From an uncultured Acidobacteriota bacterium (GTDB lineage Bacteria > Acidobacteriota > UBA6911 > RPQK01 > JAPXNP01), in contig CAWGNQ010000006.1 in assembly GCA_963823995.1 (NCBI GenBank), positions 503,685-567,684 of the forward strand: a stretch of DNA of 64,000 nucleotides. Reading direction: 5' to 3'. The translations under genes were made by a program, and so were the position numbers. Shown piece after piece: positions 4,724 through 64,000 of the stretch; the stretch's first letter is position 1; each line of letters opens with the position of its first letter. Below the pieces are notes generated by a model. That model was not told the DNA's origin. It saw only the letters and a program-made list of their open reading frames with translations, and did not search any database.

Positions 4724-4791
4724 ATCCGGGCAGGCCGGCCGGATCGATGGCTGCCGGGGGCCGGGACCCCGGCAGCGCGGAGGAGATACCC

Positions 4792-28099: not shown

Positions 28100-28174
28100 T
28101 GGATTCCGGGCGGTGAACTGCCTGTTCCGATACCGAATCGATCGGCGGCCGCTTTACCAGGGGGCGATAGGGCA

Positions 28175-32404: not shown

Positions 32405-32439
32405 CGTCGACTCCTTTGACTCTGTACCCGGAGGCGGGG

Positions 32440-44792: not shown

Positions 44793-44862
44793 GAGTACCT
44801 CACAGTCCAGCGACCGGGCCGCGGCGCACCGATCAACACGATGATCAAGGGCGGCGACGTGA

Positions 44863-45933: not shown

Positions 45934-46125
45934 GGAGAGCGGTTCGGCGTCCCCGTGTGGGAGACACCCCCGTCGCGCGTCGGTTGTGGGTTGATGGAGG
46001 ATGCCGATGCGACTCAGTGGAATTTTGGAGATCATGCCTACTTCGCTCATCGGAGAATGAATTTCAGTCATTATAGGAGCGCCTTTTCATTTGCTTCAAT
46101 AAATATGGGCCGGCAGGGTAGCGAC

Positions 46126-47109
46126 TTATCCCCACCTACGATAGTTGAAGATGACTTTGCTTCCATCCGATTCAAGGTGAAAAGGAAGTTCCTGAAGGCT
46201 GCTGAGTGCCGAACGCACTCCGTCCTGATGTTCACGCGGACAATAGATGAGCAGGAAACCTCCCCCGCCGGCACCGGTGATCTTCCCTCCCATGGCGCCG
46301 GCCCGAAGTGCCGCTTGATAGATCGTGTCGATGTCTCCGTTGGTGACCCGACTGGCCAGTTGCTTCTTCAGTTGCCAGGCGGAGTCCAGCAGGCGACCAA
46401 ACTCATCGAGCTCACCCGCTTCAAGGCATTTCCGGGCGGTCAAGGCGAGCGCTTTCAGCTCTCGCAAGACATCCATGCGTGACTCGATCTGCTGGACCTG
46501 TTCTGTGAGAATCGTCTCGGAGCGGCGCGTAACATTCGTAAAAAACAGCAGCAGATTGCGGTTAAGCCGACGTCCGAGGTTTTCCGGCAGGTTGAGAGAC
46601 TCGACCTCGATCTCTCCATTGGGCTGAAACCGGATGAACCTCTGACCCCCGAAGGCCGCGATGTACTGATCCTGATAACCGATCGGCTTGTGCAATGTTG
46701 CGATTTCGATCTCACAGGCCTCCCTGGCCAGTGATTCCGCGTCGCGCGTCACTCCGCGGTGCTGGTACATGGCATTGAGCAGACCGACGGTCACGGTGCT
46801 CGATGACCCCATCCCCGAACCGGCCGATGGGATGTCCCCCATGGTGGATATCTCGATGCCCTCTCGAACCCCCGTCTTCCTCAGGCATTCCCTCACCAGT
46901 TCATGCTGGAGCTCGTCGATGTCGTCGACCAGTTCGGTCTTCGTGTAACCAACCCGGATCTTTCGATCGAATCTCCTTTTAATGATTACGAAAATATACC
47001 GATCGACGGCCGAGGTCAGGACCCAACCTCCTTCCTTTTGAAAGAACTGCTCGAAGTCCGTTCCACCTCCGAAGAAACTGATCCTAAGAGGTGTCTGTGT
47101 GATGATCAT
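46126..47109 (-). CDS. GHMP-family sugar kinase (D-glycero-D-manno-heptose-7-phosphate kinase HddA-like)
   Basis: [13 protein letters not shown] (N-terminal HddA-like), [18 protein letters not shown] (GHMP ATP-binding motif) and [16 protein letters not shown]. Confidence 0.7.
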
Positions 47110-47289
47110 CGCAGATGCCTCTCTATGGGTGCGTCAGCGACCGAAGAAGGACCCGAAATCCTGGACCCCGAGTCTCCCGTTGTCGGTTGGTCGACGAGAC
47201 ACGAGATGCGTGTGGGAATGATCACAACGCTCTGGCGTTCTTGTATGCTAAAAATGCCTTTCTCGAAACCAGAGATCGGATGTTCAGCC

Positions 47290-49479: not shown

Positions 49480-49614
49480 CCGGAAGTGGGCTTGACCGTG
49501 ATGACGACCTCCGATCCTGTCTTGGTTTTCTGCAACCGCATGACCAGCCTGATGCGTTTCCGGCATCGGAACGGGAAGGCGGCGGGCAGGGTCCGACGCG
49601 GATCGCGCCACCAG

Positions 49615-52095
49615 ATGCCCGCGATCGCCTTTCTGACGGTTGTCAGCCTGTCCACGATCGGCTTGTCGGCACCGGTTCTGAGCTCCGTCGAATCCGCCGG
49701 CGACGTGGGGAGGTTCGAGAAGTTCGAGGTGACATTCCAAGTGACCTCCACAGTCGCCCAGAACCTCCAGTGGCCTTATGACGGTGCGCCTCCGCGTGGC
49801 GTCGAAGAAGGCGTCGGAATCTCGGTCGATGCTCTCTTCACTCCCGACGGCTGGCAGACGGTCTACAGCCAGCCCGGTTTTCTCTTTCGAGACTTCGTCG
49901 ACGAGATCCGGGACGGCAAGGCCTGGCTCTATCCCACGGATCGAACCTCCTGGAAGGTCCGTTTTGCACCCGATCGGACTGGAAGTTGGCAATTCAAAAT
50001 CCGGGTGACAGACGCGTCGGGAACGGTCGTGAGTGGACCCCGCTCCTTCAGCGTTCACGACTCTCCGAGTCCCGGTTTCCTCCATGTCAGCACCGCCGAT
50101 CCACGGTACTTTGAATTCGATGACGGAAGCCCCTTCGTCGGATTGGGCTTTCAAGGATCGAAGTTGACAGAAGCCGATTTCCAGAAGATGAAGGAAAACG
50201 GCATCCAACTCGTTCGTGTCTGGCTCGGGCCGCTCTCGATCTTCGGTTCCCAGTGGAATCCCTACTACGAGATCCGGAATACGTACCTGGGGTACGTTCC
50301 CAGGGCGGGAGTGCTTCCTTTCACGGACGACGTCACCGGCCAAACGTCGATCAAATTGAGAATCGACTACGAGCCGGCCGGCAACAGTGGTTGGTTCGAC
50401 GCTTGCCGCGTGATCGGCTACTGGGGCACTCCAACGGAAGTCAAGCCGCACACACGCTATCGGATCCAGGTCACTTACCGAGGCTTCAATATCGAGGGGC
50501 CGAGGGATCCCTCGCATCCCGCGTTCGGACTGGTCGTGAAAACGGATGTGGCTTCTTCGGACTTCCAGCGCTCGTTCGACGGCGGCATAGGACGAACGCT
50601 GACGAACCATGGCCAGAACGCGCCCGACGCCTGGAATGTTCTGGAAGGCAGTTGGGATTCGGGGAGCCGGAACTTCCTGCCCAAGTTTTTCATGGTGCTG
50701 GAGAATGTTAGGAATGGACAGGTTTACATCGATCGATTCTCGATGCGCGAGGATCTGGGCGACGGAAGTCTCGGTCCCGAGATCATGCACAAGCCTTCGA
50801 TGCAGCACCTCCACTACTTTCAGCAGCGGAACTCGTTCTACCTGGACAAGGTCGTCGCCTGGGCCGAGAAGTATGGGGTCTATCTCAAGCTCGTCGTGCT
50901 CGAGAAGGGCGAGAAGATCATGAACAAGATCGACTTCAACGGCGAGTTTGCGCAGGACGATGAACAATTTTTCTATGGCAACTATCGAGAAGTCACCAAA
51001 GTTCGTTGGCTCCAGCAGGCCTGGTGGCGATATCTGCAGGCGCGGTGGGGTTACTCGCCGAGCATCCATTCGTGGGAGCTCTTGAACGAGGGCGATCCAG
51101 TCAACGCTCGGCACTACGCTCTGACCGACGAGTTTGGCAAATACATGCACTGCAGGGTCTTTGGCGCTCCGGTCGGATCGGGCGACGCATCCCGATGCAC
51201 CTATCAGCATCCCGACAGCCACCTGATCACAACGTCCTTTTGGCATTCGCTTCCGGCGGATCGATTCTGGTCGAACTCGGCCTATCCGAATGTCGATTAC
51301 GTGGACCTGCACGCCTACATCAGCACCGGATGGATCACCGATCCGGAAATCGAGACCGACGCCGCGCGCTACCATCTCGCCTACAGCAAGGAGGCCCGCG
51401 AAAACGTCGACTACTACGCGGAGCGGAATGGTCTGGCAACCAAGCCGATCATCCGCGGAGAGGCGGGAATCGACCGCCTCTCCGTACAGCAGGAGAATCC
51501 AAAGCTGGCACAGGACCGGCAGGGAATCTGGTTGCACAATCTCACGTGGTCTCAACTCGACGCCGGGGCCATGCTGGAGCTGTATTGGTGGGGACAAAAT
51601 CGCGAAACCCTCGAGGGACCGGACGGCAAACCGGGGCTTTATGAGATCTATCGGACGTTTGACCATTTCGTCCGGGACGTACCTCTCAACAATGGCCACT
51701 ATCACAGCATCTCGTTGCATTCGTCGAACGACCAGTTGCGTGTGGAGGGTCAGCAGGACGATCAGGCGGGCCGTGCACATCTGTGGATCCAGAACAAGGC
51801 GCACACCTGGAACAAGGTCGTTGACGGAGTGGCCATCGCACCCGCCTCGGGCAACCTGCAACTCGATGGCTTTGCCGCAGACGGTTACTATCGCCTTACC
51901 TGGTTCGATACCTATTCGATCGCCGCGGATCCAACTCCGACGCGGGTCGAGACCATTCAGGCATCCTCCGCAGGTGTCCTCACGATTCCGATCGTCAGTC
52001 TCGTGTCGGACGTTGCCCTGAAGATCTCCGGGGGGCAGCCCGTGCCGGAGGGTACACCGGCGCGCCCCAAGAATTTGCGGGCGTTCCGCCCCTGA
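49615..52095 (+). CDS. GH5-like TIM-barrel glycoside hydrolase with an N-terminal DUF5060-type beta-sandwich
   Basis: The start is set at the internal ATG 49615 (MPAIAFLTVVSLSTIGLSAPVLS). WKVRFAPDRTGSWQF (DUF5060-like), then a barrel with NGIQLVRVWL, WELLNEGD and YVDLHAY, consistent with a clan GH-A fold. Family is an inference. Confidence 0.5.
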   Translation: MPAIAFLTVVSLSTIGLSAPVLSSVESAGDVGRFEKFEVTFQVTSTVAQNLQWPYDGAPPRGVEEGVGISVDALFTPDGWQTVYSQPGFLFRDFVDEIRDGKAWLYPTDRTSWKVRFAPDRTGSWQFKIRVTDASGTVVSGPRSFSVHDSPSPGFLHVSTADPRYFEFDDGSPFVGLGFQGSKLTEADFQKMKENGIQLVRVWLGPLSIFGSQWNPYYEIRNTYLGYVPRAGVLPFTDDVTGQTSIKLRIDYEPAGNSGWFDACRVIGYWGTPTEVKPHTRYRIQVTYRGFNIEGPRDPSHPAFGLVVKTDVASSDFQRSFDGGIGRTLTNHGQNAPDAWNVLEGSWDSGSRNFLPKFFMVLENVRNGQVYIDRFSMREDLGDGSLGPEIMHKPSMQHLHYFQQRNSFYLDKVVAWAEKYGVYLKLVVLEKGEKIMNKIDFNGEFAQDDEQFFYGNYREVTKVRWLQQAWWRYLQARWGYSPSIHSWELLNEGDPVNARHYALTDEFGKYMHCRVFGAPVGSGDASRCTYQHPDSHLITTSFWHSLPADRFWSNSAYPNVDYVDLHAYISTGWITDPEIETDAARYHLAYSKEARENVDYYAERNGLATKPIIRGEAGIDRLSVQQENPKLAQDRQGIWLHNLTWSQLDAGAMLELYWWGQNRETLEGPDGKPGLYEIYRTFDHFVRDVPLNNGHYHSISLHSSNDQLRVEGQQDDQAGRAHLWIQNKAHTWNKVVDGVAIAPASGNLQLDGFAADGYYRLTWFDTYSIAADPTPTRVETIQASSAGVLTIPIVSLVSDVALKISGGQPVPEGTPARPKNLRAFRP

Positions 52096-52130
52096 CCATG
52101 AGCGTGACGTTCCAGTGGCGACTGAGAACG

Positions 52131-53162
52131 TCATGACTCCGCTGCGGACAGGAGGATCTCTAGGATCCTGCGCCGCATCTCTTCCAACTCGAACTTCTCC
52201 TCGACGATTTCCCGCAGCCGGTCGCGATGTGCCTGCCGGTCGGCATCCGTTGAGTGAACGTGCCGGGTGATCTTCTCGATCAGTTCCGATTCGGTCGCAT
52301 AGACGTATTCCGACGGCAGGATCTCATCGACACCGTCCCAAAAATGAGCCAGACAATGGCAGCCGGACGCCATCGCCTCGACCAGGGCATTCTGTTGCCC
52401 TTCCCAGTAGCTGTTCGAGATGAAGATGTCGATGTCCCGGAACCAGGCTACTGGGTCGGTCACCCATCCGTGGAAGACGACCGAGTCCGTCAGGTCCAGC
52501 CGTTTGATGGCGCCCTTCACGCTCGTGAAATAGCGTTCATTCTCTCCGCCGGGCCTGGGGTCACCGCCCAGATGGAGCCGCAGATGGAAGCCGCGTCTGT
52601 GGAGTTCCGCAAGCGAGAGAATCATTTCATAGACTCTCTTGATCGGAACCAGGTCGCAGAGCATTCCAAGATTGCCCCGAAACGTCCGGCTCTTCGAATC
52701 GATGGCGGGAAGAACTTTCCCGCAGGGGACGACGGACGTACTCGTGGAGTTGGGAAGGCGGCTTCGAAAATTCCGCTCCATCGCCCGACTCACGAGAATT
52801 ACGCGGCTGACGCGGTCCCAGCGCACGTGACCGGCAAACTCGAATAGCTCCCAAGAATGAAGTCGTGTGATGAGCGGCGTTGTTGACGACACCAGGGAGG
52901 CCTCAATCAGGAGGCGTCCAGCCCATTCGAAGAAGACCACATCATGGCGGCGAAGAAACGAACGAAGCTCCCGCCCCAGCCGCCAACGGTTGATTCGGGT
53001 CTGAGCGAGAGGTGGATGCCAGTCGTCGAAAGAGAACACGTCGACCTCGAAGTAGCGCCGCCAGTCCTCAAGGAGGTCCCCGATGAAACGCCGGTTTCCA
53101 TCGATTACGACGCCAAGTTTCAGCAGCGGGCCGCCTCCCGATCCACGAACAGTCTGTTCCAC
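52131..53162 (-). CDS. GT4-family glycosyltransferase
   Basis: The start is set at GTG 53162 (MEQTVRGSGGGPLLKLGVVIDG). The ORF as listed (to 53327) has an Arg-rich N-terminus that overlaps asnB and is unlikely to be real. EGQQNALVEAMASGCHCLA is the GT4 EX7E region. Confidence 0.65.
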   Translation of the reverse strand: MEQTVRGSGGGPLLKLGVVIDGNRRFIGDLLEDWRRYFEVDVFSFDDWHPPLAQTRINRWRLGRELRSFLRRHDVVFFEWAGRLLIEASLVSSTTPLITRLHSWELFEFAGHVRWDRVSRVILVSRAMERNFRSRLPNSTSTSVVPCGKVLPAIDSKSRTFRGNLGMLCDLVPIKRVYEMILSLAELHRRGFHLRLHLGGDPRPGGENERYFTSVKGAIKRLDLTDSVVFHGWVTDPVAWFRDIDIFISNSYWEGQQNALVEAMASGCHCLAHFWDGVDEILPSEYVYATESELIEKITRHVHSTDADRQAHRDRLREIVEEKFELEEMRRRILEILLSAAES

Positions 53163-54982
53163 AATTCGAAACTGATGAGGATTCCGATCGGGCGCGACAA
53201 GGACTCGCCGGCCATGTGGCGTCGAACGAGAGCGGTCAGGGACTCCGGAACGAAATAGCCCCTCTCCAGCGCGCGATCGCTCAGGAGCAGTTCTTCTGCC
53301 CAGGGTCGCAAAACGGTGCGAAGCCACTGATCATAGTCGGCGTACGGGCGGGCACGGGGTGAGGCGACTCCGGAAATGCCGGCGGCCCGGAGCCTCCAGC
53401 GCAACTGCCTGACGAAGCGGAGCCCCAGACTCTGGAAGCAATCCGCTAGCGGAAGGCCGTCCTCCGTCGTTGGCACTTTGGCCAGGGCGGGGTGGCAGTC
53501 GACGAGAAAGGCTTTGATCAACGAGCGGTTCCAGCGGACTCCCGGCGGCAGGTTCAGGACATAGTCGACCAGGTCGTTGTCGCAAAAGGGCGTCCGCACG
53601 AGAGTTCGGCTTCGGACCAGCTGTACACCGTGTAGGATGAATCGACGTTGGCGCTGGAGCAGATCGAAGTGATTCTGCCGATTCGCGGTCAGGCTCGATG
53701 AAGACCGGCCGAGACTCTTCTTGAATCCCTCGTACAGAGGGTGTTCGATTTCCCTGAGAACTCCTGGAGCGAGCAGCGTCTTCTGCTCTTCCTCTCCAAA
53801 CAGGGTGACCGTCTCGTGGAAGAGTTGGGTCGCAGATGTTTCCGGGTCGCTGCCGTTCCAGAGCCCAAGATGAAGGTGGCCACCCAGCAGGGCGTCACCG
53901 AGGAAACCCTTGAACAGAATTCGAACTCTCTCCGCCTGCCGGTCCAGATTCGCCAGGGCGTGCATGTGGACGACGCTCTCCATGCCGTCGGTCAAAATCA
54001 CTCCCTGTTCCGCACTGTGCTTGAGGTAAGTAGGATCCAGGACGTGAAAATGGTGGGCATTGCCGTTCAAACGGGCCAGACGCCGAGCCAACCGGGCATC
54101 GTCGCAGCCGGGTTGACCAAAAGTAAAGCTGACCTGATTCGCGGGATCGGCGACGTCGGAAAGAAGTGCCAAAAGCACCCGTGAATCGAGACCTCCGCTC
54201 AGCAGGATGCCGCTCTCCTCACTCCTGTCCTGTGCCTGCCGCCGCATCGCCTGTCGGAGCAGGTCCGTCAAATCGGAGACACACTCCTCCCACGAACCTG
54301 GCAGCCGGTCCTCACGGAATTGAAGGTCGAAGTAGCGGTGGACCTGGATCTGGTCGCGTTCGAAAACGACCAGCGAACCCGGAGGCACGAGTCGGATGCC
54401 GGACACGAGGGTCCGTTCGTCGAGCACGAACTCGAAGGAGAGCAGCTGGCTGAGCGCCGTGGCATCTACTCGGGGTTCGAGGGAGCGGTCGGCAAGCAGA
54501 GAGCGAATTCCGGCGCCAAAGAGGAAGCGGTCTGGCGTCAGTGCGTAGTAGAGCGGCAACGTTCCGAGCCGATCACAGGCCAGAATCAGGCGTGCCGTCC
54601 GGGCGTCCCATACGGCAGCCGCGAAAGCTCCGTTCAGCTGCTCGGCAAAGAAGAGGCCCGATTCCTCATAAAGATGGGGGACGAGGCCGAGCGGGTCGTC
54701 TGTTGCCGGTTCGTGTCCGGTCCGGACGAGTCTCCGACGGATCGCCTGGACATCGAAGATCTCACCCTCCACGACCGCACAGATACTTCGCGCTTCATTC
54801 CAGAAGGGCTGTCGGGGCGTTCCGAGGAAATTCAAACATGTCCGTCCTAGTCCGACTCCTTTTGCGGCGTACACGTCAGTCGAATAGGAGGGCAACTCCG
54901 TCAGCGCCCGGCCCATGCAGTCAAGTAGTCCGGGCTGTCCGGTCGAGGCTGTGCGATCGACGAATCCAAAGAGTCCTGGCAT
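53120..54982 (-). CDS. asnB: Asparagine synthetase (glutamine-hydrolysing), AsnB-like, embedded in a polysaccharide locus
   Basis: N-terminal Ntn glutaminase (MPGLFGF...C at position 2 after Met removal...). ILLSGGLDSRVLLALL PP-loop. 620 aa. Confidence 0.75.
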   Translation of the reverse strand: MPGLFGFVDRTASTGQPGLLDCMGRALTELPSYSTDVYAAKGVGLGRTCLNFLGTPRQPFWNEARSICAVVEGEIFDVQAIRRRLVRTGHEPATDDPLGLVPHLYEESGLFFAEQLNGAFAAAVWDARTARLILACDRLGTLPLYYALTPDRFLFGAGIRSLLADRSLEPRVDATALSQLLSFEFVLDERTLVSGIRLVPPGSLVVFERDQIQVHRYFDLQFREDRLPGSWEECVSDLTDLLRQAMRRQAQDRSEESGILLSGGLDSRVLLALLSDVADPANQVSFTFGQPGCDDARLARRLARLNGNAHHFHVLDPTYLKHSAEQGVILTDGMESVVHMHALANLDRQAERVRILFKGFLGDALLGGHLHLGLWNGSDPETSATQLFHETVTLFGEEEQKTLLAPGVLREIEHPLYEGFKKSLGRSSSSLTANRQNHFDLLQRQRRFILHGVQLVRSRTLVRTPFCDNDLVDYVLNLPPGVRWNRSLIKAFLVDCHPALAKVPTTEDGLPLADCFQSLGLRFVRQLRWRLRAAGISGVASPRARPYADYDQWLRTVLRPWAEELLLSDRALERGYFVPESLTALVRRHMAGESLSRPIGILISFELWNRLFVDREAARC

Positions 54983-54989
54983 GAGTCGT

Positions 54990-56393
54990 TCAGAAGATCC
55001 GTTTCAGCAGGGATCGTCGCAGCAGTGAGTGCAGGCCCCGGTTGAGGATCTGGCCGGGTTGATACCATACGCCGCGCAGGGCGGCAGACGCTACTTCACG
55101 GCTCTGACCCTTGTGGTGAAGCGAAAAGGCTCTGTTGATCAAACAGAGTCCACGCAGCCGGCGGACGAAGGGCCGCCCGAGTACGAGGGTGAGAGACGGA
55201 TCGAGAGCCCTCAGCACCCCGTCGGCAGACTTCGCTCCGAATTCCGATTCGTAGATCGAGATCTGATCCGCCAGCTCATGTAACAAGTCCGGCGGCTCCT
55301 GCGTCCACCGATAGTCCCGGGCTTTCGAGGCGTATGCTTGGCCCGCCTCCAGGCGGCCCCAGAACAGAGCTCGGATCATTTTGACCAGAAATCCATAAGC
55401 GATCGCCCTTTCGGCCTGCTTCCGAAGACTTCGTTGGCTCTCCGGGAGCTGTTCGAACATGCTGGACATGATCGCAACATGATCAGCGCTGTCGTCGGCA
55501 ATCGCCAGAGAAAGGAACATGTTCACGAGCTCGCAAGGATTACCCTCGACGACACCCGCCCTCAGGCGCACGGCATCCTCCAGGAACTGCCTGCCCTCCT
55601 GTGTTCGATGCTGCACGAAGGCATGGAAGGCGAGGACCATCGCCTGGTGGGCCATGCCGGCGTCGCGCGCCTCCGCGGATCCTTCGGGACACCTCGGGTC
55701 GGCTGTGAGCCGGGCGAGTGTGGCGTTGGCTTCCTCGAACCGTTCCCGGAGGTTCTTGCGGTATCGGTTCGAATGATGCCGCCTGTAGTTCAGGATTCGA
55801 TCGACACTGGCAAATCGGCACCCGGCCAGCGCCAGGCGGGCAGGGAACTCCAGGTCCTCGCTCCCGTTCACGCACGCCTCGTCGAACAGATCGACGGCCA
55901 CGGCCCAGTTCCGGCGCATCACCATATCGCTCGGAGCAAACGGAAATCCAGCCAGGAAATCGAGGAATCCGACCGAAAGGGGTGGGCGACTGAGGTTTCT
56001 GATTGTGTCCGAGGAATAGTTCAGCTCGTAACGGCCGTTGTAGGTGACTCCGACCTCCGGGTGCTCGTTCAGGAAGGCCGCGTGCGTCGCGAGCTTCTCC
56101 GGGTGGAAATAGTCGTCGGCATCGAGGAAAGCAATCCAGTCTCCATTGGAGTAACGAATTCCGGTGTTACGGGTGGCCGGAAGCCCCCTGTTCTCAGGAT
56201 GTTCCACGAGATGGATGCGGGGATCCGAGAACATGTCGACGACATGCGAAGTACTATCGGGAGAAGCGTCGTTGACGACGACGATCTCCAATTTGCCAAA
56301 AGTCTGGTTCAGGACGCTTCGAATCGCGTCGGCAAGGAATTCCGCTTGGTTGTAGGCGGGGATGACGATGCTGAAAGCCGGGGAATGCTCCAT
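54990..56393 (-). CDS. GT2-family glycosyltransferase with a C-terminal extension
   Basis: FSIVIPAYNQAEFLADAIRSVLNQTF, VVNDASPD and the DxD-like FLDADD. Confidence 0.8.
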   Translation of the reverse strand: MEHSPAFSIVIPAYNQAEFLADAIRSVLNQTFGKLEIVVVNDASPDSTSHVVDMFSDPRIHLVEHPENRGLPATRNTGIRYSNGDWIAFLDADDYFHPEKLATHAAFLNEHPEVGVTYNGRYELNYSSDTIRNLSRPPLSVGFLDFLAGFPFAPSDMVMRRNWAVAVDLFDEACVNGSEDLEFPARLALAGCRFASVDRILNYRRHHSNRYRKNLRERFEEANATLARLTADPRCPEGSAEARDAGMAHQAMVLAFHAFVQHRTQEGRQFLEDAVRLRAGVVEGNPCELVNMFLSLAIADDSADHVAIMSSMFEQLPESQRSLRKQAERAIAYGFLVKMIRALFWGRLEAGQAYASKARDYRWTQEPPDLLHELADQISIYESEFGAKSADGVLRALDPSLTLVLGRPFVRRLRGLCLINRAFSLHHKGQSREVASAALRGVWYQPGQILNRGLHSLLRRSLLKRIF

Positions 56394-56396
56394 GAT

Positions 56397-57245
56397 TCAG
56401 ACGATGTCGGCGAAAAGATGCTCGACCTTCCGAAACAATCCGTAGCCGGCGATGAAGATCACGACGGAGAGCACCAGCGAGACCATGAATGACGACCCAG
56501 GGAGAACTCCTGAGATGAGCACATCTCGATAGGCCTGAAGGATGCCGACCATCGGGTTCAGTAGATAGAAGCGCCGGTAAGGTTCGGGCACCATCGTCAC
56601 GGGATAGATGATCGGCGAGGCGTAGAACCAGATCTGAATGCCGAGCGCCAGCAACGATTTCACGTCGCGATAGAAGACATTGAGCGCTGAACAAGTCAGC
56701 CCGATTCCAGCGATCAGCAGGAGCTGGACGATCAGAATCAAAGGCAGAAACAGCCATGGGATCGTGAAGATCGGAAGCTGGTAGACGATCAGCAGGACTA
56801 CGAAGACCACGGCCGCGACGAAGAAGTCGGTAAATCTGGCCAGCATGGCCGCGATCGGCAGTACTTCGCGCGGAAGATAGATTTTCGTGATCAGGTTCAT
56901 GTTGAGCACCAACGAGTCCGCCATGTCCTGAAGCGAGTTCGAAAGCAGTGTCCAAGGAATGACGCCCACGAAGGAGAAGAGGATGTAGGGTGTGTCGCCG
57001 GTATTGACTCGAACGAACCGGGTAAACACGATCGTCAGAATAATCACCGAGACGGCCGGCTGAATGACGGCCCAAAGCCAACCAAGCAACGATTGCTGGT
57101 ACCTGCCACGGATCGTCCGACCTGTCCAGGCCCAAAGCAGTTCCTTGGACTTCAGTAACCGGGTCAAGGTAGCCGACTCCTGGGTCTGCACGAAGGTTCC
57201 CGGTAAATCAGCCTCTTTCATGTTTCCATTCCCGATTGGGCTCAA
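56397..57245 (-). CDS. wzm: ABC-2 type polysaccharide exporter permease (Wzm/KpsM/TagG family)
   Basis: 6 TM helices. The N-terminal LKSKELLWAWTGRTIRGRYQQSLLGWLWAVIQP is characteristic of Wzm. Confidence 0.75.
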   Translation of the reverse strand: MSPIGNGNMKEADLPGTFVQTQESATLTRLLKSKELLWAWTGRTIRGRYQQSLLGWLWAVIQPAVSVIILTIVFTRFVRVNTGDTPYILFSFVGVIPWTLLSNSLQDMADSLVLNMNLITKIYLPREVLPIAAMLARFTDFFVAAVVFVVLLIVYQLPIFTIPWLFLPLILIVQLLLIAGIGLTCSALNVFYRDVKSLLALGIQIWFYASPIIYPVTMVPEPYRRFYLLNPMVGILQAYRDVLISGVLPGSSFMVSLVLSVVIFIAGYGLFRKVEHLFADIV

Positions 57246-58416
57246 AAACCCCGTTCATCTCCTGATGACTCAGAACAGAACCTGCGACGTAGAAGAGCGG
57301 CGAAGTCGCAGAGTGCAGACCGAACGAGTCGCTTTCGTCCCGCGCAATCACCTGAGCGTAATAGGCCCCTCCATACAACTGGATGGGATCCAGGCGTAAG
57401 GTTACGATCCCTTCCCCACGTTGCAGGGCAAAAGACAGGTCATCCAGTCGGGAACGGATCATGCAACAGGTTAATCCATCCGATCGTAGGATTCGGACGA
57501 CCAGCTGCACGACCGTGTCCGCAAAGGCAATGTAGTGGATCTGAAGCACGGCAGGTTTGGATGAGGACAAACCGACGTGGTCGGGGGCCGGCAAAACTTC
57601 GACCCGTGAAATCTCGACCTCTTTGTCGTCGAACTCCACCTCATCGATCTCGAGCTTGCGAGCTCGCTCATGCTGAATGTCGCGGTCATATCGCTCGATG
57701 ACTTCCGCTGCCCGACCCTGAAGGACCAGGCGACCTTTCTGGATGTAAATGGCGGATTCACAGACCGACTGAACCAGCCAAAGGTTGTGAGAAACGAAGA
57801 TGATGCTCGTTCCTTTAGCCAGCAATTCGGCAATCCTGTCCATGCAGCGCTTTCGAAAAGTCGCGTCCCCGACGGCCAGCACCTCGTCGACCAGGAGAAT
57901 CTCAGGTTCGATGCAGGCGGCGACGGAGAATCCGAGACGCACTGCCATTCCCGAGGAATAGCGTTTCACGGGTGTGTCGATGAAGTCCTCGAGCTCAGAA
58001 AAGGCGACGATTTCATCGAAGCGTCTTCGAATCTCGCTTCGGGGCAGGCCCAGGATCGCTCCGTTCAAGAAGATGTTCTCGCGACCCGTAAGATCGGGGT
58101 GGAATCCTGCCCCCAGTTCGATCAACGCGGAGAGCCGGCCATGGATGCTGATCGTTCCCGAGGTCGGTCGAGTGATCTTGGCCAACAGCTTCAGGATAGT
58201 CGTCTTTCCGGCGCCATTCGGACCCACCAGTGCAAGGGACTGTCCCCGGTTGAGATCGAACGACACATCCCGAACCGCCCAAAGCTCTTGACGGGCTGTC
58301 GTCCCGTCCCTTCTCACCAATTTTCTGAGTGAGTTGGAAACGAGCGTCGGGAGACTCGTCCGGCTCAAGCCGAGGCGGTATCGTTTGAAAACTGCCCTGA
58401 ACTGAACCGTCTTCAC
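57208..58416 (-). CDS. wzt: ABC polysaccharide exporter ATPase with a C-terminal carbohydrate-binding domain (Wzt type)
   Basis: The start is set at GTG 58416, which overlaps the upstream stop as GTGA. Walker A GPNGAGKTT; signature LSGGM-like YSSGMAVRL; Walker B ILLVDEVLAVGD. A C-terminal ~150 aa beta-sandwich (Wzt_C-like) is present. Confidence 0.75.
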   Translation of the reverse strand: MKTVQFRAVFKRYRLGLSRTSLPTLVSNSLRKLVRRDGTTARQELWAVRDVSFDLNRGQSLALVGPNGAGKTTILKLLAKITRPTSGTISIHGRLSALIELGAGFHPDLTGRENIFLNGAILGLPRSEIRRRFDEIVAFSELEDFIDTPVKRYSSGMAVRLGFSVAACIEPEILLVDEVLAVGDATFRKRCMDRIAELLAKGTSIIFVSHNLWLVQSVCESAIYIQKGRLVLQGRAAEVIERYDRDIQHERARKLEIDEVEFDDKEVEISRVEVLPAPDHVGLSSSKPAVLQIHYIAFADTVVQLVVRILRSDGLTCCMIRSRLDDLSFALQRGEGIVTLRLDPIQLYGGAYYAQVIARDESDSFGLHSATSPLFYVAGSVLSHQEMNGVFEPNREWKHERG

Positions 58417-59285
58417 CAGAGCGTTTTCCTTGCGCGGCCCGGCACATCGACGAGGGCCGCAGACTCCTGGTAGACTCGCTCGCACCTACGCTCGACGATT
58501 CTCTGCTCTCGTCGGGTCAGGGCATTTCTCTTGCCGACGCTCCGGGTGTGAATGTACTCCCCATATTCTGGCTTGTAGCGCAATCTCGCAAACCGATAGA
58601 GGAACGGAAGGAGCGTCTCCTTTTCGGTGACGAGTGCATCATAGTCGACGACCAGGATATTCTCCCTGCCGAGGGCCTTCCTGAGGATCGAGAGTTGTGC
58701 CAGTTTCCAGCTGTATAAGGCACATGCCTTCTCGAGGGACTCGATCCGGGCGCCCCCGATCGTCCTGTAAAACCGGCCCCTCAGACCGGCCATTCCAGGG
58801 AGCACCGCTTGCTCGAAGGTACGATTCAGAGCTTCCGAGGGCCAGTTGTAGGCGAGCGAGAAAACTGTTGAATACGGATTCCGCAGAACCCAGATCATCT
58901 GGAAATCGCCCTTGTACTGCAGGTACTCAGGGTATGACTCGTCGACATACGTGGTTTGAAAACAGTAACGCCCCGATGCATCGGATTCGGCCATGCCGGC
59001 AAGGAGCAAGGCTCCGGAAAGTTCATCATCTCCTTCAACCCAGTGGGGAGTCATCCCCTCACTCTGGTTGAAGAGTCGGGCCAGCATCGTGGTCCCGGAC
59101 CGTTGGCATCCCGTGATCAGAAGAGCGTTTCGAAATTCCGGCAGCCGTTTCAGGAGATTCTTTGGCCGAGATCCGACGGCGGAGCGAAACTGCCGCCAAC
59201 TCGCGATCCGAGGTTGCTCCGCCTCCCTGTGGCTCGTGGGTGCTGTCGCTTTCATTTCCACGTTCAATTTCGGGATACTCCGCAA
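58413..59285 (-). CDS. Sulfotransferase-family protein (PAPS-dependent)
   Basis: LLITGCQRSGTTMLARL is a 5-prime-PSB-like P-loop. Size and context fit a polysaccharide sulfotransferase. The start could be the internal M at 59255. Confidence 0.6.
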   Translation of the reverse strand: MRSIPKLNVEMKATAPTSHREAEQPRIASWRQFRSAVGSRPKNLLKRLPEFRNALLITGCQRSGTTMLARLFNQSEGMTPHWVEGDDELSGALLLAGMAESDASGRYCFQTTYVDESYPEYLQYKGDFQMIWVLRNPYSTVFSLAYNWPSEALNRTFEQAVLPGMAGLRGRFYRTIGGARIESLEKACALYSWKLAQLSILRKALGRENILVVDYDALVTEKETLLPFLYRFARLRYKPEYGEYIHTRSVGKRNALTRREQRIVERRCERVYQESAALVDVPGRARKTLW

Positions 59286-59369
59286 GCGCCCCGGCTTCCT
59301 TCTTCAATTACTTTGCGATAATACCGTTTGACGCCGACCGGTCTTCACTCCGAAACGAACTTCACCCGC

Positions 59370-60428
59370 TCAGGAGCGATGCCGCACAGATCCGGACTTC
59401 TCAGCTTCATACAGAGCGGTCATAATTCGTTCAATGCTGCGACGAAAAGTTACACGGTTCACCATCAACTCGTAGGCTCTCTCGACGAACTCCTGGCGCT
59501 CCGTTTCATGCTCGAGGTAGTGGAGAATGGAGCTTGGAATCTGGTCCGGAGAAACCGAAATGTAGTGGACATTCGGCTGATAATCGGTACAGTGTTCCTG
59601 AAGGGGTTCCGAAACAACCAGCGATCGATTTGACATGGCCATCGCGAGCCGCGACATGTTGTCGTCGTACCAGGTTCGGGTGATGTTTAGGGTAATCGTC
59701 GAGCGGTTCAAGAGCACCGTTCGGTCGTGTCCGAAGGCGTACGGATTCTCTTCGTTGTCCGCCACATGCATACGGACGCCCTCCTTCTCGATTTCCGACC
59801 GAACTCGATCCAAGAGTCGGCTTCGTCTGCCCGAACCCCTCTTCCCGATCCAGAGCACATCGATATCCCTCTCCAATTGAAGGTCGTCGTACCAGTCAGG
59901 AATACTGCCCCAGGGAGCCGCCACCACGGGGATGCCGCGCGCTCTGTGGAGTCGTGCATACACCTCGGATGCGTCGGCGAGGACGTGTAGCAGTCCCTTT
60001 TGCCAGGCGTAGTGGTAGTCTCCGACATACCGAAATCGAAGCAATCGACGGTCGAGAAAAGAACCGGCAACACGCTTGAGACCGTTGTGTCTTCTGACGA
60101 TCCTCCCGACTCCGGATCTCATAGAAGCGAGGAACATGGTCAACGGGAGAGGAATCCGCAGATCGGGAAAGCCTTCCAGGTTCCACTGGATCGTGACAGG
60201 AGGTGGTGATTTGCCGGCTGCTTCTTCGAGACGTGGAAGCAGATCGCCGTATGGCGCAAATAGAAAGACGACGTCCACCCCCTCCGGGACCGGATCCTGG
60301 GGTCCGAAGTAGATCACAGTGTGGCCCAGCGACGTTAGTGCCGAGCCGATCGCGCGGGCGCACTCGTCGCTCGGAGCAGACCATTCCACGACCGCGACCC
60401 GCCGACTGGGCTCGGTTGGCTTGCCCAT
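59370..60428 (-). CDS. CgeB-like / GT1-fold putative glycosyltransferase
   Basis: The start is set at ATG 60428 with a GGAGGTGG Shine-Dalgarno 9 nt upstream. DIDVLWIGKRGSGRRSRLL...LNRSTITLNITR resembles DUF3880/CgeB-type GT domains. Weak assignment. Confidence 0.4.
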   Translation of the reverse strand: MGKPTEPSRRVAVVEWSAPSDECARAIGSALTSLGHTVIYFGPQDPVPEGVDVVFLFAPYGDLLPRLEEAAGKSPPPVTIQWNLEGFPDLRIPLPLTMFLASMRSGVGRIVRRHNGLKRVAGSFLDRRLLRFRYVGDYHYAWQKGLLHVLADASEVYARLHRARGIPVVAAPWGSIPDWYDDLQLERDIDVLWIGKRGSGRRSRLLDRVRSEIEKEGVRMHVADNEENPYAFGHDRTVLLNRSTITLNITRTWYDDNMSRLAMAMSNRSLVVSEPLQEHCTDYQPNVHYISVSPDQIPSSILHYLEHETERQEFVERAYELMVNRVTFRRSIERIMTALYEAEKSGSVRHRS

Positions 60429-60459
60429 GTTTACGCCACCTCCTGACGTGGAGTATAAG

Positions 60460-61788
60460 TCATTGGTCAATTCCGACCATGTGCCAGAGGCCTGCTCTCA
60501 CTCTAGCTCTTAGCCGGAACTCCAAACGCTTCCGCCAGGGATCCTCATGACCGGCTCGATCGGGGGCCGGTTGCGGATCGGCGGCCCAGGAAAGGGCTTC
60601 CCTCGTCGTCTCCTCGAAGGAGAGCTTCGTTCTGGCGATCTCCTGGGCAGTGGACTTCATTCGTAGCCTCAATGCTTCGTCACGTGACGATTTCAGAATC
60701 GCCTCGCCCAATCCCTGCCAGTCGCCCACCTCGAAGCACAGGCCCGCTCCCCATGAACTTAAGAGATTGCTCAGTTCCGAACCGGTGCTGGACAAGACGG
60801 GTAAACCGGCCCCGATCATTTCCACTAATCGAGTTCTTGTACCGTAGATCGTTTCGTAATGCATGGCATCGATGTTGAGCCCCAGATCGCTCAGAAGATA
60901 AAAGTCGGCCACCTTCTGCCACGGTTGCCAACCCACGAGATGAAAATGGTCCCGGTGCGAAGATGCTGCGATCATGTTCTGTAGTTCCGAGTAGACTGTC
61001 TGTGGCGCTTCGTATGTGCTCTCCCCCACGGAAACGTAGTGGACGCGCGGGTTTCTCCGCATCGCGAATTCCATTCCGCGAAACAGTGTCTCAACGTCAG
61101 TCCAGGTGTTGTACCCACCGCACCAGAGAACCAGGAAATCGTCAGGCGATATATTCAGCTTGTCTCCCCACGTCCATTTCGGTTCTTCCTGTTGTCGGCC
61201 CGGGGAAGGTGCCGACCCGGGAAGAATGACCCGCGAAAACTCATAACCGAAGTTCTCCCGAGTCAGGCGCCCGGCCATGGCCATCTCTCCGACCAGCATG
61301 TGCTTCTGCGGGACACCGCAGACCGAAAAGAGATCCCCGCTCCGAAGAACTTCCTTCATGAAGGCAACCGAAGTGGTCATTCCCCGGTTCGACTGCTTCC
61401 GGAAGCAGTAGGCCTGCTGGATGGTGAGCATATCGCCATAGATATCCATCCACCGGGGCCGATCGGTCCGAAGCTTGGTCGAGTAGAGGCAATGCGAAAA
61501 GTTGATGGAGAAGATGCAGTCGGGTCCGACACGGTCATGAGCCCTCTGGAGTTCTCCGGCCCAGCCCTGTCGTCCAAAGGGAATCGAGATACAGCGGACG
61601 TTCGGCCATGGAAGTCGGTTCGTCGCGAGAACGAGTTCCTGACCGTGGATTCCGGCACAGAATTCGATCTCATGTCCGGCGAGGGCGAGTGGCTCGAGGA
61701 ATTGCCAGGTACGGTAGTGACCGGCGTCGATGCGCTGATCGCCGAGCAGATGAGGCGTCGGATAACCGATCAACAGTATTTTCGCCAC
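60460..61788 (-). CDS. GT1/GT4-family glycosyltransferase (442 aa)
   Basis: MAKILLIGYPTP... The C-terminal domain ETIYGTRTRLVEMIGAGLPVLSSTGSELSNLL is a GT-B nucleotide-binding region. Confidence 0.6.
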   Translation of the reverse strand: MAKILLIGYPTPHLLGDQRIDAGHYRTWQFLEPLALAGHEIEFCAGIHGQELVLATNRLPWPNVRCISIPFGRQGWAGELQRAHDRVGPDCIFSINFSHCLYSTKLRTDRPRWMDIYGDMLTIQQAYCFRKQSNRGMTTSVAFMKEVLRSGDLFSVCGVPQKHMLVGEMAMAGRLTRENFGYEFSRVILPGSAPSPGRQQEEPKWTWGDKLNISPDDFLVLWCGGYNTWTDVETLFRGMEFAMRRNPRVHYVSVGESTYEAPQTVYSELQNMIAASSHRDHFHLVGWQPWQKVADFYLLSDLGLNIDAMHYETIYGTRTRLVEMIGAGLPVLSSTGSELSNLLSSWGAGLCFEVGDWQGLGEAILKSSRDEALRLRMKSTAQEIARTKLSFEETTREALSWAADPQPAPDRAGHEDPWRKRLEFRLRARVRAGLWHMVGIDQ

Positions 61789-61818
61789 GTTCTCCTCCGT
61801 CCGGGCAGACGCCGCGGT

Positions 61819-62856
61819 TTACAGGTGTCCGAAGAGGTCGAGGTTCTCCTCGATCCAGTGGTAAAGGCGGGTCACACCTTCCCTGACCGAAATCCGGGGT
61901 CGCCAGTCCAGCTCCCGCTCAGCCTTGCCAATGTCGCTGATGTAGATCGGTTGGTCGCCCGGCCTCCAAGCTGCGTAGGCGACTTCGAGATCATGTCCGA
62001 GCAACTCCTCCAGGAGACTCGAAAACTCCCGCCAGATGCTAATCGTGTTTCCCGCGCCTCCTCCGATATTGTAGATTCGGCCTCGGGCCGTGTCGATCTT
62101 CGAGACGATGGACTCATAGGCATCCAGAAGATCGTCGATGAAGAGCACGTCGCGCACTTGCTTGCCGTTCCCGAAGATGGAGATGGATCGCCGCTTGAGC
62201 GCTGCAATGATGAACCACGCCAGCCACCCCTGATCTTCGACTCCGAACTGTCGGTATCCATAGATACAGCTCTGACGCACGACGACCGTCCTGAGCCCGT
62301 AGATCCTCGCGTAGTCTCTGGTGTACTGGTCTCCGGCCCCCTTGGAGCACCCGTAGGGTGAATGAAAGTCGACAGCCTGAGTCTCCGGAATGCCTCTGGA
62401 CAGATGCTTGAAACGGTATCGGCTTTCTTCTTCGACGACCTCGACCGCGTCGAGCTCTCCGTAGACCTTGTTGGTGCTCGCGTAGATCACGACCGGGTCG
62501 TCTCCGTTCTCGCGAGCGGATTCCAGGACGTTGAACGTGCCGAGGGCATTCGCTTCGAAGTCGAGTCTTGGACTGCAGACCGAGGAGGTGACGGCGACCT
62601 GGCCGGCCAGATGGTACACGCGTGACGCACCCCGCATCGCGTCTCTCAGACGAGGATAATCGGTGATGTCTGCGCGGACGAAGCTCAAAGCGTCGGAAAA
62701 ATGATGTTCCCTCAGCCAGGACACATTGGCTTCACATCCTGATCGAGAGAGGTTGTCGTAAACGACGACTCTATGACCGGACTCCAGCAACCGGTGAACC
62801 AGATTCGAGCCGATGAATCCTGCGCCTCCCGTAATCAAAACCTTTTCTTGCGTCAC
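61819..62856 (-). CDS. NAD-dependent epimerase/dehydratase (extended SDR; CDP-/UDP-sugar epimerase-like)
   Basis: The start is set at GTG 62856 (GGGAGG Shine-Dalgarno; 4-nt overlap with the upstream stop). VLITGGAGFIGSNL (Rossmann fold) and YGCSKGAGDQY (catalytic YxxxK). The listed ORF start at 63255 adds an implausible Arg/Gly-rich 133 aa. Confidence 0.8.
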   Translation of the reverse strand: MTQEKVLITGGAGFIGSNLVHRLLESGHRVVVYDNLSRSGCEANVSWLREHHFSDALSFVRADITDYPRLRDAMRGASRVYHLAGQVAVTSSVCSPRLDFEANALGTFNVLESARENGDDPVVIYASTNKVYGELDAVEVVEEESRYRFKHLSRGIPETQAVDFHSPYGCSKGAGDQYTRDYARIYGLRTVVVRQSCIYGYRQFGVEDQGWLAWFIIAALKRRSISIFGNGKQVRDVLFIDDLLDAYESIVSKIDTARGRIYNIGGGAGNTISIWREFSSLLEELLGHDLEVAYAAWRPGDQPIYISDIGKAERELDWRPRISVREGVTRLYHWIEENLDLFGHL

Positions 62857-64000
62857 CGAGATCCTCCCGCTTCGTCCTGTGCCTGCATCGATCCTTCGTC
62901 GGAGCGGCGAGTCGGGAACCGCTTCGATTCGGGTCGAATCGGAGACGGACCCTCGAACGCCTTCTGGAGACTTCGGATACCTTCGAATGCGGCTTCCAGG
63001 TCGTCGACCATCCGCTCCAGGCTGAAATTCCGTCGGACCTCGTCCCGCCCGGCTCGGGCCAGCCGGTGGCATAGGCGAGGATCGTGGAGGATCCGGCGAA
63101 TCTGAGCTGCCAGTCCCTCCGGATCTCCCGCTCGGAAGGTCAAGCCGTTCTCGTTGTCCCGGAGGAGCTCGCCGGTCCCCCCGGTCGTCGTTCCGATGAC
63201 CATCAGTCCCGCCGCCATCGCCTCGAGCGCGACTCGGGCGAACGGCTCTTCCCATTCGGAAGGGAACAGCAGGACATCATAGCCCTCCAGGATCCCGGGT
63301 ATGGCGGCGCGATCGACCGAACCCCGGAATCGCACATGGCTCTGCAGTCCGTGACGGTAGACTTGTCTCTCAAGGCGGGCGAGATAGTCGCGATCACCAC
63401 TCCCGTAGAAGTCGATCGAAAAGCATTCGCCCCACTGCGTCAGGATGCGTGCCGATTCCACAGCTGTGTGAACACCCTTCTCATGAGCCATCCGGCCGAC
63501 GTAGACCAGGCGGATCCGATTGGCTCCGTCGACGCCGGGCACCTCCCGGTCCGTGCCGATCAGGTCGGTTCCACCATAGATAATGGTTCCGTGGGCGGCT
63601 CGAACGCCGAGGGAAATCAGTTGCTTCCGGACCGCCCTCGAAACGAAGAAGGGATGCGTCAAGGAGAGGGGGTATTCCTCGAAATCGTCCGTCATTCGAG
63701 CCAGCACCGAGTACAACAGACGCTTGGCCCATGCCGCATACCTGCGACGTGCCGGAGCCTGCAATTGTTGCCGGAAAGCACTGGGGAGTGAAGGCCAGTA
63801 GTCACAGAAGTAGTAGGCCACTCTGTCTTTCATCAGTCGTTCGATGAGTGCCGGGACAGCACGGTGGATGTTCCACATCCCCCATATCAGCACGACCTCC
63901 GGTGACGTCTGCTCGAGGATCCTTCGGGTCTGCTCCAGGTTTTCCGTGACCAGAGACTTCTGCCGAAGTATCCGCCCAATCGAAGAAGAAAGCCCGTTCG
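62853..64000 (-). CDS. GT4-family glycosyltransferase; 5-prime end beyond the window
   Basis: The reading frame stays open upstream of the listed GTG 63893 to the window edge (...LEQTRRILEQTSPEVVLIWGMWN...). The C-terminal domain FPSEWEEPFARVALEAMAAGLMVIGTTTGGTGELL is the GT4 EX7E motif. Confidence 0.7.
   Translation of the reverse strand, partial: NGLSSSIGRILRQKSLVTENLEQTRRILEQTSPEVVLIWGMWNIHRAVPALIERLMKDRVAYYFCDYWPSLPSAFRQQLQAPARRRYAAWAKRLLYSVLARMTDDFEEYPLSLTHPFFVSRAVRKQLISLGVRAAHGTIIYGGTDLIGTDREVPGVDGANRIRLVYVGRMAHEKGVHTAVESARILTQWGECFSIDFYGSGDRDYLARLERQVYRHGLQSHVRFRGSVDRAAIPGILEGYDVLLFPSEWEEPFARVALEAMAAGLMVIGTTTGGTGELLRDNENGLTFRAGDPEGLAAQIRRILHDPRLCHRLARAGRDEVRRNFSLERMVDDLEAAFEGIRSLQKAFEGPSPIRPESKRFPTRRSDEGSMQAQDEAGGSR

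Follow-up and report, generated by a model that had tools for sequence, protein, structure and literature searches.

Does a sulfotransferase encoded immediately upstream of wzt, the ATPase gene of an ATP-binding cassette (ABC) polysaccharide exporter, act on the glycan which that exporter carries, and does the exporter read the sulfate? The question is raised by a minus-strand gene array at positions 52131-64000 of a 64,000-nucleotide stretch of DNA from an uncultured Acidobacteriota bacterium (GenBank assembly GCA_963823995.1, contig CAWGNQ010000006.1, forward-strand positions 503,685 to 567,684), the whole of which is termed here the window. According to the original prediction, this is a locus for a possibly sulfated glycan, dependent on an ABC transporter and including a sulfotransferase as well as a Wzt with a carbohydrate-binding domain (CBD); wherever computation could test it, this description held. 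What computation shows are the identities of the genes, the protein folds, the synteny, and the way in which pocket residues covary with the presence of the sulfotransferase. From the comparison of sequences, we consider the chances evenly balanced that the glycan is sulfated in the cytoplasm and exported by Wzm/Wzt, with the sulfate forming part of an epitope that would be read by a putative arginine-lined pocket of the CBD.

The sulfotransferase and the transporter

The sulfotransferase gene (58413-59285, minus strand) codes for 290 residues from a TTG at 59285, or for 280 residues from an ATG at 59255. The Sulfotransfer_3 profile scored 38 bits against a cut-off of 27, with the match confined to the P-loop, and Sulfotransfer_1 scored 20 bits over residues 55-237, just under its cut-off of 22. 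The 5'-phosphosulfate-binding (PSB) loop GCQRSGTT (residues 59-66, 59088-59111) is invariant in an alignment of 20 homologues, as are R135, N136, P137, S139 and S143 of the 3'-phosphate-binding (PB) motif R135-N-P-x-S139...S143 (58857-58883), a stretch that aligns with the equivalent stretch of CurM and SULT7A1. The motif DDEL (D86-D87-E88) and the segment GRYCFQTTY are likewise invariant among these homologues; we propose D86-D87-E88 as a candidate for the catalytic base, on the model of the Glu in TPST-type enzymes.

In the AlphaFold (AF2) model the protein forms one globular domain of about 265 residues, and a long helix is absent (predicted local distance difference test, pLDDT, 84; predicted template modelling score, pTM, 0.83). 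All 50 of its 50 top fold matches in the PDB are sulfotransferases that use 3'-phosphoadenosine 5'-phosphosulfate (PAPS), led by the CurM sulfotransferase (2e-6) and followed by TPST1/2, SULT7A1, Stf9, NDST1 and 3-OST. Because the template modelling scores (TM-scores) of these matches lie at 0.4-0.5 and the best PDB sequence E-value is about 1e-3, the enzyme is placed, on sequence and predicted fold, as a distant member of the PAPS sulfotransferase superfamily. The earlier naming of this P-loop protein as a sulfotransferase thus agrees with the Sulfotransfer_3 score, the invariant PSB and PB motifs and the fold, and an unrelated kinase or NTPase is ruled out by the motifs together with the unanimous fold matches. 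A phmmer search of 1.84 billion cluster representatives returned 229 relatives at E<=1e-3, 90 of them at E<=1e-30, and the sequences point to a compact and distinct family. That its acceptor is a carbohydrate we infer from gene context. In the public record the gene is called as 58413-59087 (224 residues), from an internal Met after the P-loop, and it is on account of this start that the record shows no Pfam domain. Several homologues in the representative library likewise start at query residue 57.

The wzt gene follows directly, overlapping the sulfotransferase gene by 4 nucleotides as had been predicted, with the junction read as GTGA. It codes for an ATPase of 402 residues (57208-58416, minus strand), composed of an ABC nucleotide-binding domain (NBD; ABC_tran, 3e-22) and a C-terminal extension (residues ~262-402, 57211-57633). 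Together with the Wzm ABC-2 permease (56397-57221, minus strand, 274 residues from an ATG at 57221; ABC2_membrane, 4.5e-13), this Wzt/TagH-type ATPase makes up the gene pair of a Wzm/Wzt ABC-2 glycan exporter. The best NCBIfam families are galactan Wzt/RfbE and TagH for Wzt, and Wzm/RfbD and KpsM for Wzm, all below their equivalog cut-offs; a profile of the window Wzt matches the Wzt of Aquifex aeolicus at 1.7e-79.

Since the extension reached 20.9 bits against Wzt_C (PF14524), under the cut-off of 30.4, evidence from the fold was needed for its assignment. The Wzt_C domain is precomputed in most homologues of 56-65% identity. When the full protein is modelled (pLDDT 82), the C-terminal part is all-beta (strands 267-401), and its C-terminal strand comes after a flexible loop in the manner of strand-swapped CBD dimers. 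The seven best PDB matches found by Foldseek are full-length A. aeolicus Wzt (8dne, 7k2t, 8dku), over 395-405 columns at E ~1e-35 to 2e-36. On this model the extension is a CBD, with the predicted C-terminal jelly-roll of the cap-dependent Wzt subclass, and the binding module attributed to Wzt in the original prediction is therefore borne out by an alignment of about 400 columns that takes in the A. aeolicus CBD. In carrying a CBD the ATPase differs from KpsT, and the window open reading frames (ORFs) that were scanned include none resembling KpsE, KpsS or KpsC, so that the gene set is not that of a group 2/3 (KpsMTED-type) capsule.

The cytoplasmic modifiers of the locus, other than glycosyltransferases, consist of the sulfotransferase(s) and an AsnB-type enzyme. 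No methyltransferase, kinase or 3-deoxy-D-manno-octulosonic acid (Kdo) transferase was seen in the 20 kb around the operon, and none of the proteins of the locus was recognised as a coiled coil.

Pocket residues of Wzt and presence of the sulfotransferase

The cap pocket of A. aeolicus Wzt is formed by I299, L300, T346, A348, H350, the trap loop 352-356 and W362 (PMC9445017). Mapping by HMMER and by independent MAFFT alignments gave the same correspondence with the window Wzt: I299 is V307, L300 is R308 (57493-57495), T346 is Q355 (57352-57354), A348 is I357, H350 is R359 (57340-57342) and D354 is D363. Among 65 aligned Wzt sequences, R308 is present in 56, R or K at 359 in 55 and Q355 in 51, and a minority type carries F, H, I or T at 308, E or D at 355, L or T at 359, and N360. 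Every Wzt with a sulfotransferase on the same contig has R308 together with R or K at 359. An apparent same-contig sulfotransferase accompanies 22 Wzt of the arginine type and none of the minority type.

The loci inspected at this step were chosen to challenge the covariation; the related loci are referred to by number. Two arginine-type Wzt that had initially lacked a sulfotransferase match (L085 and L086) both proved, on inspection, to have a sulfotransferase in their loci. In four loci with a variant-type Wzt (L087-L090; H, F or T at 308, E or D at 355, L359 and T395) the sulfotransferase is absent from the visible region. There, L087 encodes a formyltransferase, WbqC and an aminotransferase near Wzt, and L090 a formyltransferase and WbqC, the latter overlapping wzt by 4 nucleotides; L088 has a GNAT protein with a DegT aminotransferase, and L089 a GNAT protein with an aminotransferase. 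The best natural control locus is L089, which has the same GT2 and GT4 glycosyltransferases, AsnB and beta-helix enzyme as the window, without the sulfotransferase and without the arginines. The basic pair at 308 and 359 is also found in loci reached via the sulfotransferase, including the divergent L003 (R308, K359).

An unbiased scan of alignment columns compared 25 sulfotransferase-linked Wzt with the four verified sulfotransferase-free ones, a column counting as separating when its conservation in the first group was 90% or more and none of its residues recurred in the second. Nine of 402 columns separate the groups (W213, V306, R308, Q355, R359, D360, Y376, M387 and R395), eight of them in the CBD. 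The three arginines R308, R359 and R395 are lost together in the sulfotransferase-free proteins, R395 (57232-57234, minus strand) being specific to sulfotransferase-linked loci. Of the ten positions homologous to the pocket, three (308, 355 and 359) are among these nine columns, an overlap with a hypergeometric P of 9e-4 over the whole protein and of 0.012 within the CBD. The original prediction had noted that a Wzt C-domain usually recognises a chain-terminating modification; that the CBD here reads such a modification gains comparative support from the pocket covariation, a terminating role of the sulfotransferase being putative.

The conserved core, composed of sulfotransferase, none or one further gene, CBD-bearing Wzt, Wzm, GT2 and GT4, is present in L003, L009, L011/L084, L040, L062, L082, L083, L085 and L086, and it spans Acidobacteriota and Chloroflexota. 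In L082-L086 the intervening gene, where there is one, codes for AsnB or a GT2, and Wzm is followed by a GT2 of ~470 residues and usually by AsnB and then a GT4 of ~335 residues; in L084 the GT2 is present but the small GT4 is missing, and in L085 a further gene is inserted between wzt and wzm. Two loci from Acidobacteriota metagenome-assembled genomes, L009 and L040, are syntenic with the window in the order GT4-MBOAT-DUF1574-GT4-SDR-GT1-sulfotransferase-Wzt, and L009 continues so through Wzm-GT2. Among the 120 best Wzt matches, 24 apparently share a contig with one of the 120 best sulfotransferase matches.

Several observations weigh against recognition of sulfate by the CBD, or against a cap formed by this enzyme. 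In a neighbour-joining tree built on the NBD alone, the variant Wzt form one nested clade and one separate sequence, amounting to about two evolutionary switches. The verified sulfotransferase-free loci are just four, one of which (L090) is visible for 2.3 kb upstream of wzt, and loci with a swapped enzyme may also differ in backbone sugars, in which case the pocket changes need not report sulfate. The sulfotransferase family is found in Desulfobacterota, Anaerolineae, Acidobacteriota, Scalindua (Planctomycetota) and many Gammaproteobacteria, and it stands next to a CBD-bearing Wzt in five of 80 GTDB loci, the other 75 having no Wzt nearby. Adjacency to wzt is thereby ruled out as a general rule, the link being confined to one Wzt clade. 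In the closest GTDB relative, Desulfosoma locus L002, the sulfotransferase (46% identity) has a Wzx-type flippase and GT4 genes as its neighbours, a setting in which its role must be the decoration of repeat units and not the capping of a chain. The family as such therefore consists of general glycan sulfotransferases, for which Wzt is not an obligate partner. Finally, the window enzyme is a bare catalytic domain, whereas all characterised terminators have a coiled-coil ruler (PMC11231755), and neither an initiating transferase nor PAPS-synthesis genes were found in the region examined.

A stronger proposal is that the sulfate is an elongation-stopping terminal cap and would constitute a fourth cap class. 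The ruler-less sulfotransferase would then terminate the chain, the CBD arginines R308, R359 and R395 would read the sulfate, and the sister lineages would have swapped both the enzyme, in favour of an N-formyl or N-acetyl amino-sugar, and the pocket. Because the same enzyme family occurs in Wzx loci and no coiled-coil ruler is present, we rate this proposal lower and advance it tentatively, as somewhat doubtful.

The main alternative is that the sulfotransferase decorates internal repeat units, that the CBD reads another cap or the backbone, and that the linkage to wzt reflects co-regulation of late cytoplasmic steps. It would account for the homologue in a Wzx-type locus without a chain cap, for the many loci without a nearby Wzt and for the missing ruler, and decoration at multiple sites would fit the further sulfotransferases, one of them just beyond the window end and the other in L083. 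Yet it offers no reason for the retention of three CBD arginines, at positions homologous to the A. aeolicus cap pocket, solely in company with the sulfotransferase, and the window locus contains no alternative cap enzyme. We regard repeat-unit decoration of this kind as possible but unlikely.

Operon, neighbouring genes and export route

Gene families were assigned by Pfam and NCBIfam profile searches of the window ORFs. Ten co-directional minus-strand genes, each with family support, lie within 52131-64000; eleven had been predicted, so that strand and direction stood and the count did not. Their products are four GT1/GT4-type glycosyltransferases (one of them CgeB-like), a GT2, AsnB, a short-chain dehydrogenase/reductase (SDR), Wzm, Wzt and the sulfotransferase, which are the families that had been named beforehand. 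The outermost GT4 gene (62853-64000; Glycos_transf_1, 1e-33) is cut by the window end. Its full length of 446 residues can be read on the source contig, L001, which encodes a protein 100% identical to one of the window (ENA ERZ25039500 contig_15880, 911 kb; window coordinate = 69088 - L001 coordinate), where it occupies 4895-6235 and thus reaches window coordinate 64193. The SDR-family protein, a nucleotide-sugar epimerase or dehydratase of 345 residues (61819-62856; Epimerase, 1.6e-49; GDP_Man_Dehyd, 9e-51), scores under every NCBIfam equivalog cut-off. The GT1/GT4-type enzyme at 60460-61788 (442 residues; Glycos_transf_1, 1e-8) has homologues of 520-525 bits in L009 and L040 and is kept in the syntenic Acidobacteriota loci. 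The CgeB-like enzyme (Glyco_trans_1_2, PF13524, 7e-11) is encoded at 59370-60470, the public call starting from an ATG at 60428.

Downstream of wzm lies the GT2 gene (54990-56393; Glycos_transf_2, 6e-37), which codes for 467 residues including a ~250-residue C-terminal extension and has homologues of 301-456 bits in L003, L009, L011 and L082-L090. As the first gene after wzm in nearly every related locus, it is a candidate for the polymerising enzyme. The AsnB-type glutamine amidotransferase (53120-54982, 620 residues; Asn_synthase, 7e-26; GATase_7, 2e-22) recurs in related loci. The second conserved core glycosyltransferase, a GT4 of 343 residues in the public call (52131-53162; Glyco_trans_1_4, 1.7e-14), has homologues of 209-382 bits in L003, L062, L082, L083, L085, L086 and L089.

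The array is operon-tight. GTGA start/stop overlaps occur at two junctions, that between sulfotransferase and Wzt and that between GT4 and SDR, where the SDR start is GTG; many overlaps of GTGA or ATGA type had been announced, and their existence was upheld but not their abundance. The Wzt stop and the Wzm start overlap by 14 nucleotides, gaps of 3 and 7 nucleotides separate Wzm from GT2 and GT2 from AsnB, and the sole sizeable gap, of at least 84 nucleotides, sits upstream of the sulfotransferase. Scans of 51900-64000 for consensus promoters and terminators gave results no better than shuffles.

On L001 the locus runs past the window end: after the rest of the GT4 gene come a second sulfotransferase and a DUF1574-like protein, then an MBOAT O-acyltransferase, and finally another GT4 and a GT2, the last of which runs off the examined stretch. 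The second sulfotransferase differs from the first and is spread over two frames (L001 3954-4878, equal to window 64210-65134 and hence outside the window), with a P-loop GVGRSGTT in ORF 3954-4397 and RHP...S of the 3'-PB region in ORF 4231-4878; it is either a pseudogene or the product of an indel error in long-read assembly. An SGSH-type sulfatase gene in the window (13385-15089, plus strand) is similarly divided into two overlapping frames (13385-14164 and 13998-15089), and the two split genes together suggest homopolymer indels in the assembly.

On the other side of the operon are a GHMP-family sugar kinase (46126-47109, minus strand; GHMP_kinases_N/C) and two tandem outer-membrane polysaccharide export (OPX) genes of the Wza/KpsD type (44866-46086 and 43800-44882, minus strand; Poly_export and SLBB in both). 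The same GHMP-OPX-OPX trio lies directly upstream of wzt in L088 (homologues of 301-488 bits, with 488 for the kinase and 301-309 for the OPX proteins), and for this reason the three genes are assigned to the same system. The kinase is probably its precursor-supply gene; homologues of 414-432 bits in L004 and L006 (Anaerolineae) hint that it may supply the sugar that gets sulfated. In those two loci, which lack a Wzt, the kinase homologue lies about 5 kb downstream of the sulfotransferase. The OPX genes point to a diderm host and to an outer-membrane route of the exopolysaccharide (EPS) or capsule type.

A right-handed beta-helix, lyase-like protein with CBM6/CBM35 modules (46903-49479, plus strand; Chondroitinas_B, Beta_helix, CBM_6, CBM_35_2), whose true start is probably internal, has homologues that flank L062, L082 (325 bits), L085 (352 bits) and L089 (391 bits). 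It is probably an accessory enzyme acting on the product, and its recurrence beside related loci suggests a product-specific lyase and hence a polymer containing uronic acid; the UDP-glucose dehydrogenase genes in L083 and L086 fit this idea. A secreted-looking protein of 869 residues (49486-52095, plus strand), which like the beta-helix protein is encoded convergently to the operon and which has a DUF5060 N-domain at 22.9 bits, below the cut-off, has no homologue in the other loci examined, and its association with the operon is uncertain. The ORF of 1599 residues at 47335-52134 (minus strand) was rejected as a high-GC artefact, being antisense to two plus-strand genes, with no domain support and a lower third-position GC content (GC3, 0.58).

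As to the destination of the product, it might be an O-antigen of lipopolysaccharide (LPS), or a glycan linked to protein or S-layer, instead of a capsule or EPS, a possibility that can coexist with any of the readings above. CBD-bearing Wzt are classically O-antigen exporters (PMC9445017), and related Anaerolineales loci carry Wzy_C (ligase- or oligosaccharyltransferase-like) and PMT_2 proteins. The two OPX genes, which belong to capsule and EPS export, nonetheless flank the system in both the window and L088, and the 20 kb around the window locus contain no Wzy_C gene such as the Anaerolineales relatives carry; we think an O-antigen or linked glycan rather improbable here. It had been argued that an O-antigen ligase or Wzy would imply a different pathway. 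This argument is unsound: ABC-dependent related loci carry Wzy_C, and since WaaL-type ligases act downstream of ABC export, its presence is compatible with such export. That the sulfotransferase is an operon passenger acting on protein tyrosine, a lipid or a small molecule is very improbable: its fold matches include tyrosylprotein sulfotransferases and the polyketide CurM domain, and at such TM-scores the acceptor cannot be read from the fold, but the family is embedded among glycosyltransferase and polysaccharide genes in the loci examined, the gene is translationally coupled to wzt here, and the CBD covariation would go unexplained.

Export of a sulfated epitope recognised by Wzt would proceed as follows. 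Glycosyltransferases, namely the conserved GT2/GT4 pair with variable GT1/GT4 helpers, would assemble the polymer on a lipid carrier at the membrane's inner face, with the SDR and AsnB-type enzymes supplying or modifying sugars, probably a uronic acid or an amidated sugar. The single-domain PAPS sulfotransferase, translationally coupled to wzt, would add a sulfate ester before export; the Wzt CBD would then read the sulfate-containing epitope by its putative arginine-lined version of the cap pocket (R308, Q355, R359 and R395), and Wzm/Wzt would move the chain across the inner membrane. After export, the MBOAT and DUF1574-like proteins would probably O-acylate the chain, the two OPX proteins would carry it across the outer membrane, and the beta-helix enzyme would trim it. 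In this scheme we infer the acceptor sugar, the placing of sulfate at a non-reducing terminus where it would stop elongation, and all of the steps after export.

The Anaerolineales-type loci have companions of their own. BNR_2 beta-propeller proteins (~500 and ~900 residues) are encoded upstream of the sulfotransferase or wzt in L082-L087 and L089, often with Wzy_C(+TPR) or a PMT_2 GT-C protein, and a radical SAM enzyme is encoded in two loci; none of these companions is present in the window. The gene between wzt and wzm in L085 (11291-12742) codes for an alkaline-phosphatase-superfamily protein annotated Sulfatase/SGSH_C, 26% identical to the window sulfatase. It was rejected as a de-capping enzyme, as FTPAA replaces the C/S-x-P-x-R formylglycine motif (Thr nucleophile, NPP-like) and no signal peptide is evident.

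Elsewhere in the window there are genes for a GH29 fucosidase, an arabinofuranosidase-like protein, GH127 and GH106. The original prediction had the window both build and degrade decorated, possibly sulfated, glycans. The context genes do exist, but no evidence ties them to the operon: the sulfatase, fucosidase and arabinofuranosidases lie 12-50 kb away, no such link is found in related loci, and a functional connection was rejected. The window further encodes an encapsulin shell protein (31601-32497, minus strand; Linocin_M18, E 1e-82). A plus-strand cluster at 24939-30696 comprises a lysine-2,3-aminomutase (radical SAM and LAM_C), a GNAT-histone-deacetylase-like fusion and two ATP-grasp proteins (D-Ala-D-Ala ligase C-like), one of which is fused to GNAT; the cluster resembles a pathway for a beta-lysine-derived metabolite.

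Comparison with known systems

The caps documented as read by Wzt are methyl, (methyl)phosphate and Kdo (PMC9445017, PMC11231755), and sulfate is not among them. The cap-dependent systems (WbdD-Wzt of Escherichia coli O9a and Klebsiella pneumoniae O3, the Kdo terminators of K. pneumoniae O12 and O4, and A. aeolicus 7k2t/8dku) likewise combine an ABC-2 permease with a Wzt that carries a C-terminal jelly-roll after the NBD, and they encode the modifying enzyme beside the transporter, as here. The positions by which A. aeolicus Wzt holds its 3-O-methyl cap are those that vary with the neighbouring enzyme in the window-type loci, and in the window protein arginines stand in place of the hydrophobic L300 and the cap-contacting H350. 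Their terminators have a coiled-coil ruler, in contrast to the window sulfotransferase, and the window system is associated with OPX proteins and has no obvious LPS ligase.

Among rhizobial enzymes, NodH, KpsS and LpsS (the last a further glycan sulfotransferase, from Sinorhizobium meliloti) are, unlike the window enzyme, not linked to a CBD-bearing Wzt; the likeness is one of type, and the small number of relatives of the window enzyme suggests that its family may be separate from theirs. NodH and Mesorhizobium loti KpsS are PAPS-dependent, Sulfotransfer_3-type enzymes with an R-x-G P-loop and bacterial glycolipid or polysaccharide acceptors (PMC11625862). The capsule locus of Vibrio sp. KMM 8419 resembles the window in the cytoplasmic assembly, ABC export and clustered sulfotransferase genes proposed for it; it differs in having KpsMTED without a CBD, cysNDC for PAPS within the cluster and a sulfated repeat unit, with no coupling to transporter recognition proposed (PMC11641403). 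The wb(salmo) O-antigen cluster of Aeromonas salmonicida, likened here by description, is ABC-dependent and has an ORF of 216 residues with a sulfotransferase domain directly beside wzt (PMC4483657). This locus also carries a WbbB-type terminator, and the structure of the bulk O-antigen showed no sulfate (PMC4483657). By analogy, the missing bulk sulfate is suggestive, as it would be expected of a sub-stoichiometric terminal group.

Recognition of the cap by Wzt is a quality-control step in a major route of bacterial glycan export. A CBD that reads sulfate would extend the cap code, with sulfate as a tag for readiness to be exported, and would provide a compact candidate set of specificity-determining residues, for which the natural variants that lost the sulfotransferase would serve as controls. 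The core system is conserved in uncultivated Acidobacteriota and Chloroflexota, and the enzyme family extends to Desulfobacterota, Scalindua and many Gammaproteobacteria; judged from these, the sulfation of bacterial glycans in soils, sediments and sludge would be more widespread than one would expect from the examples in rhizobia and marine taxa. The sulfotransferases would also be candidate enzymes for the microbial production of sulfated polysaccharides. In the literature we found no description of a sulfotransferase and a Wzt CBD working as a functional pair. ABC export of sulfated polysaccharides has been proposed earlier, and glycan sulfotransferases are known from rhizobia; what is new is the pairing of a sulfotransferase with a CBD-bearing Wzt whose pocket covaries with it.

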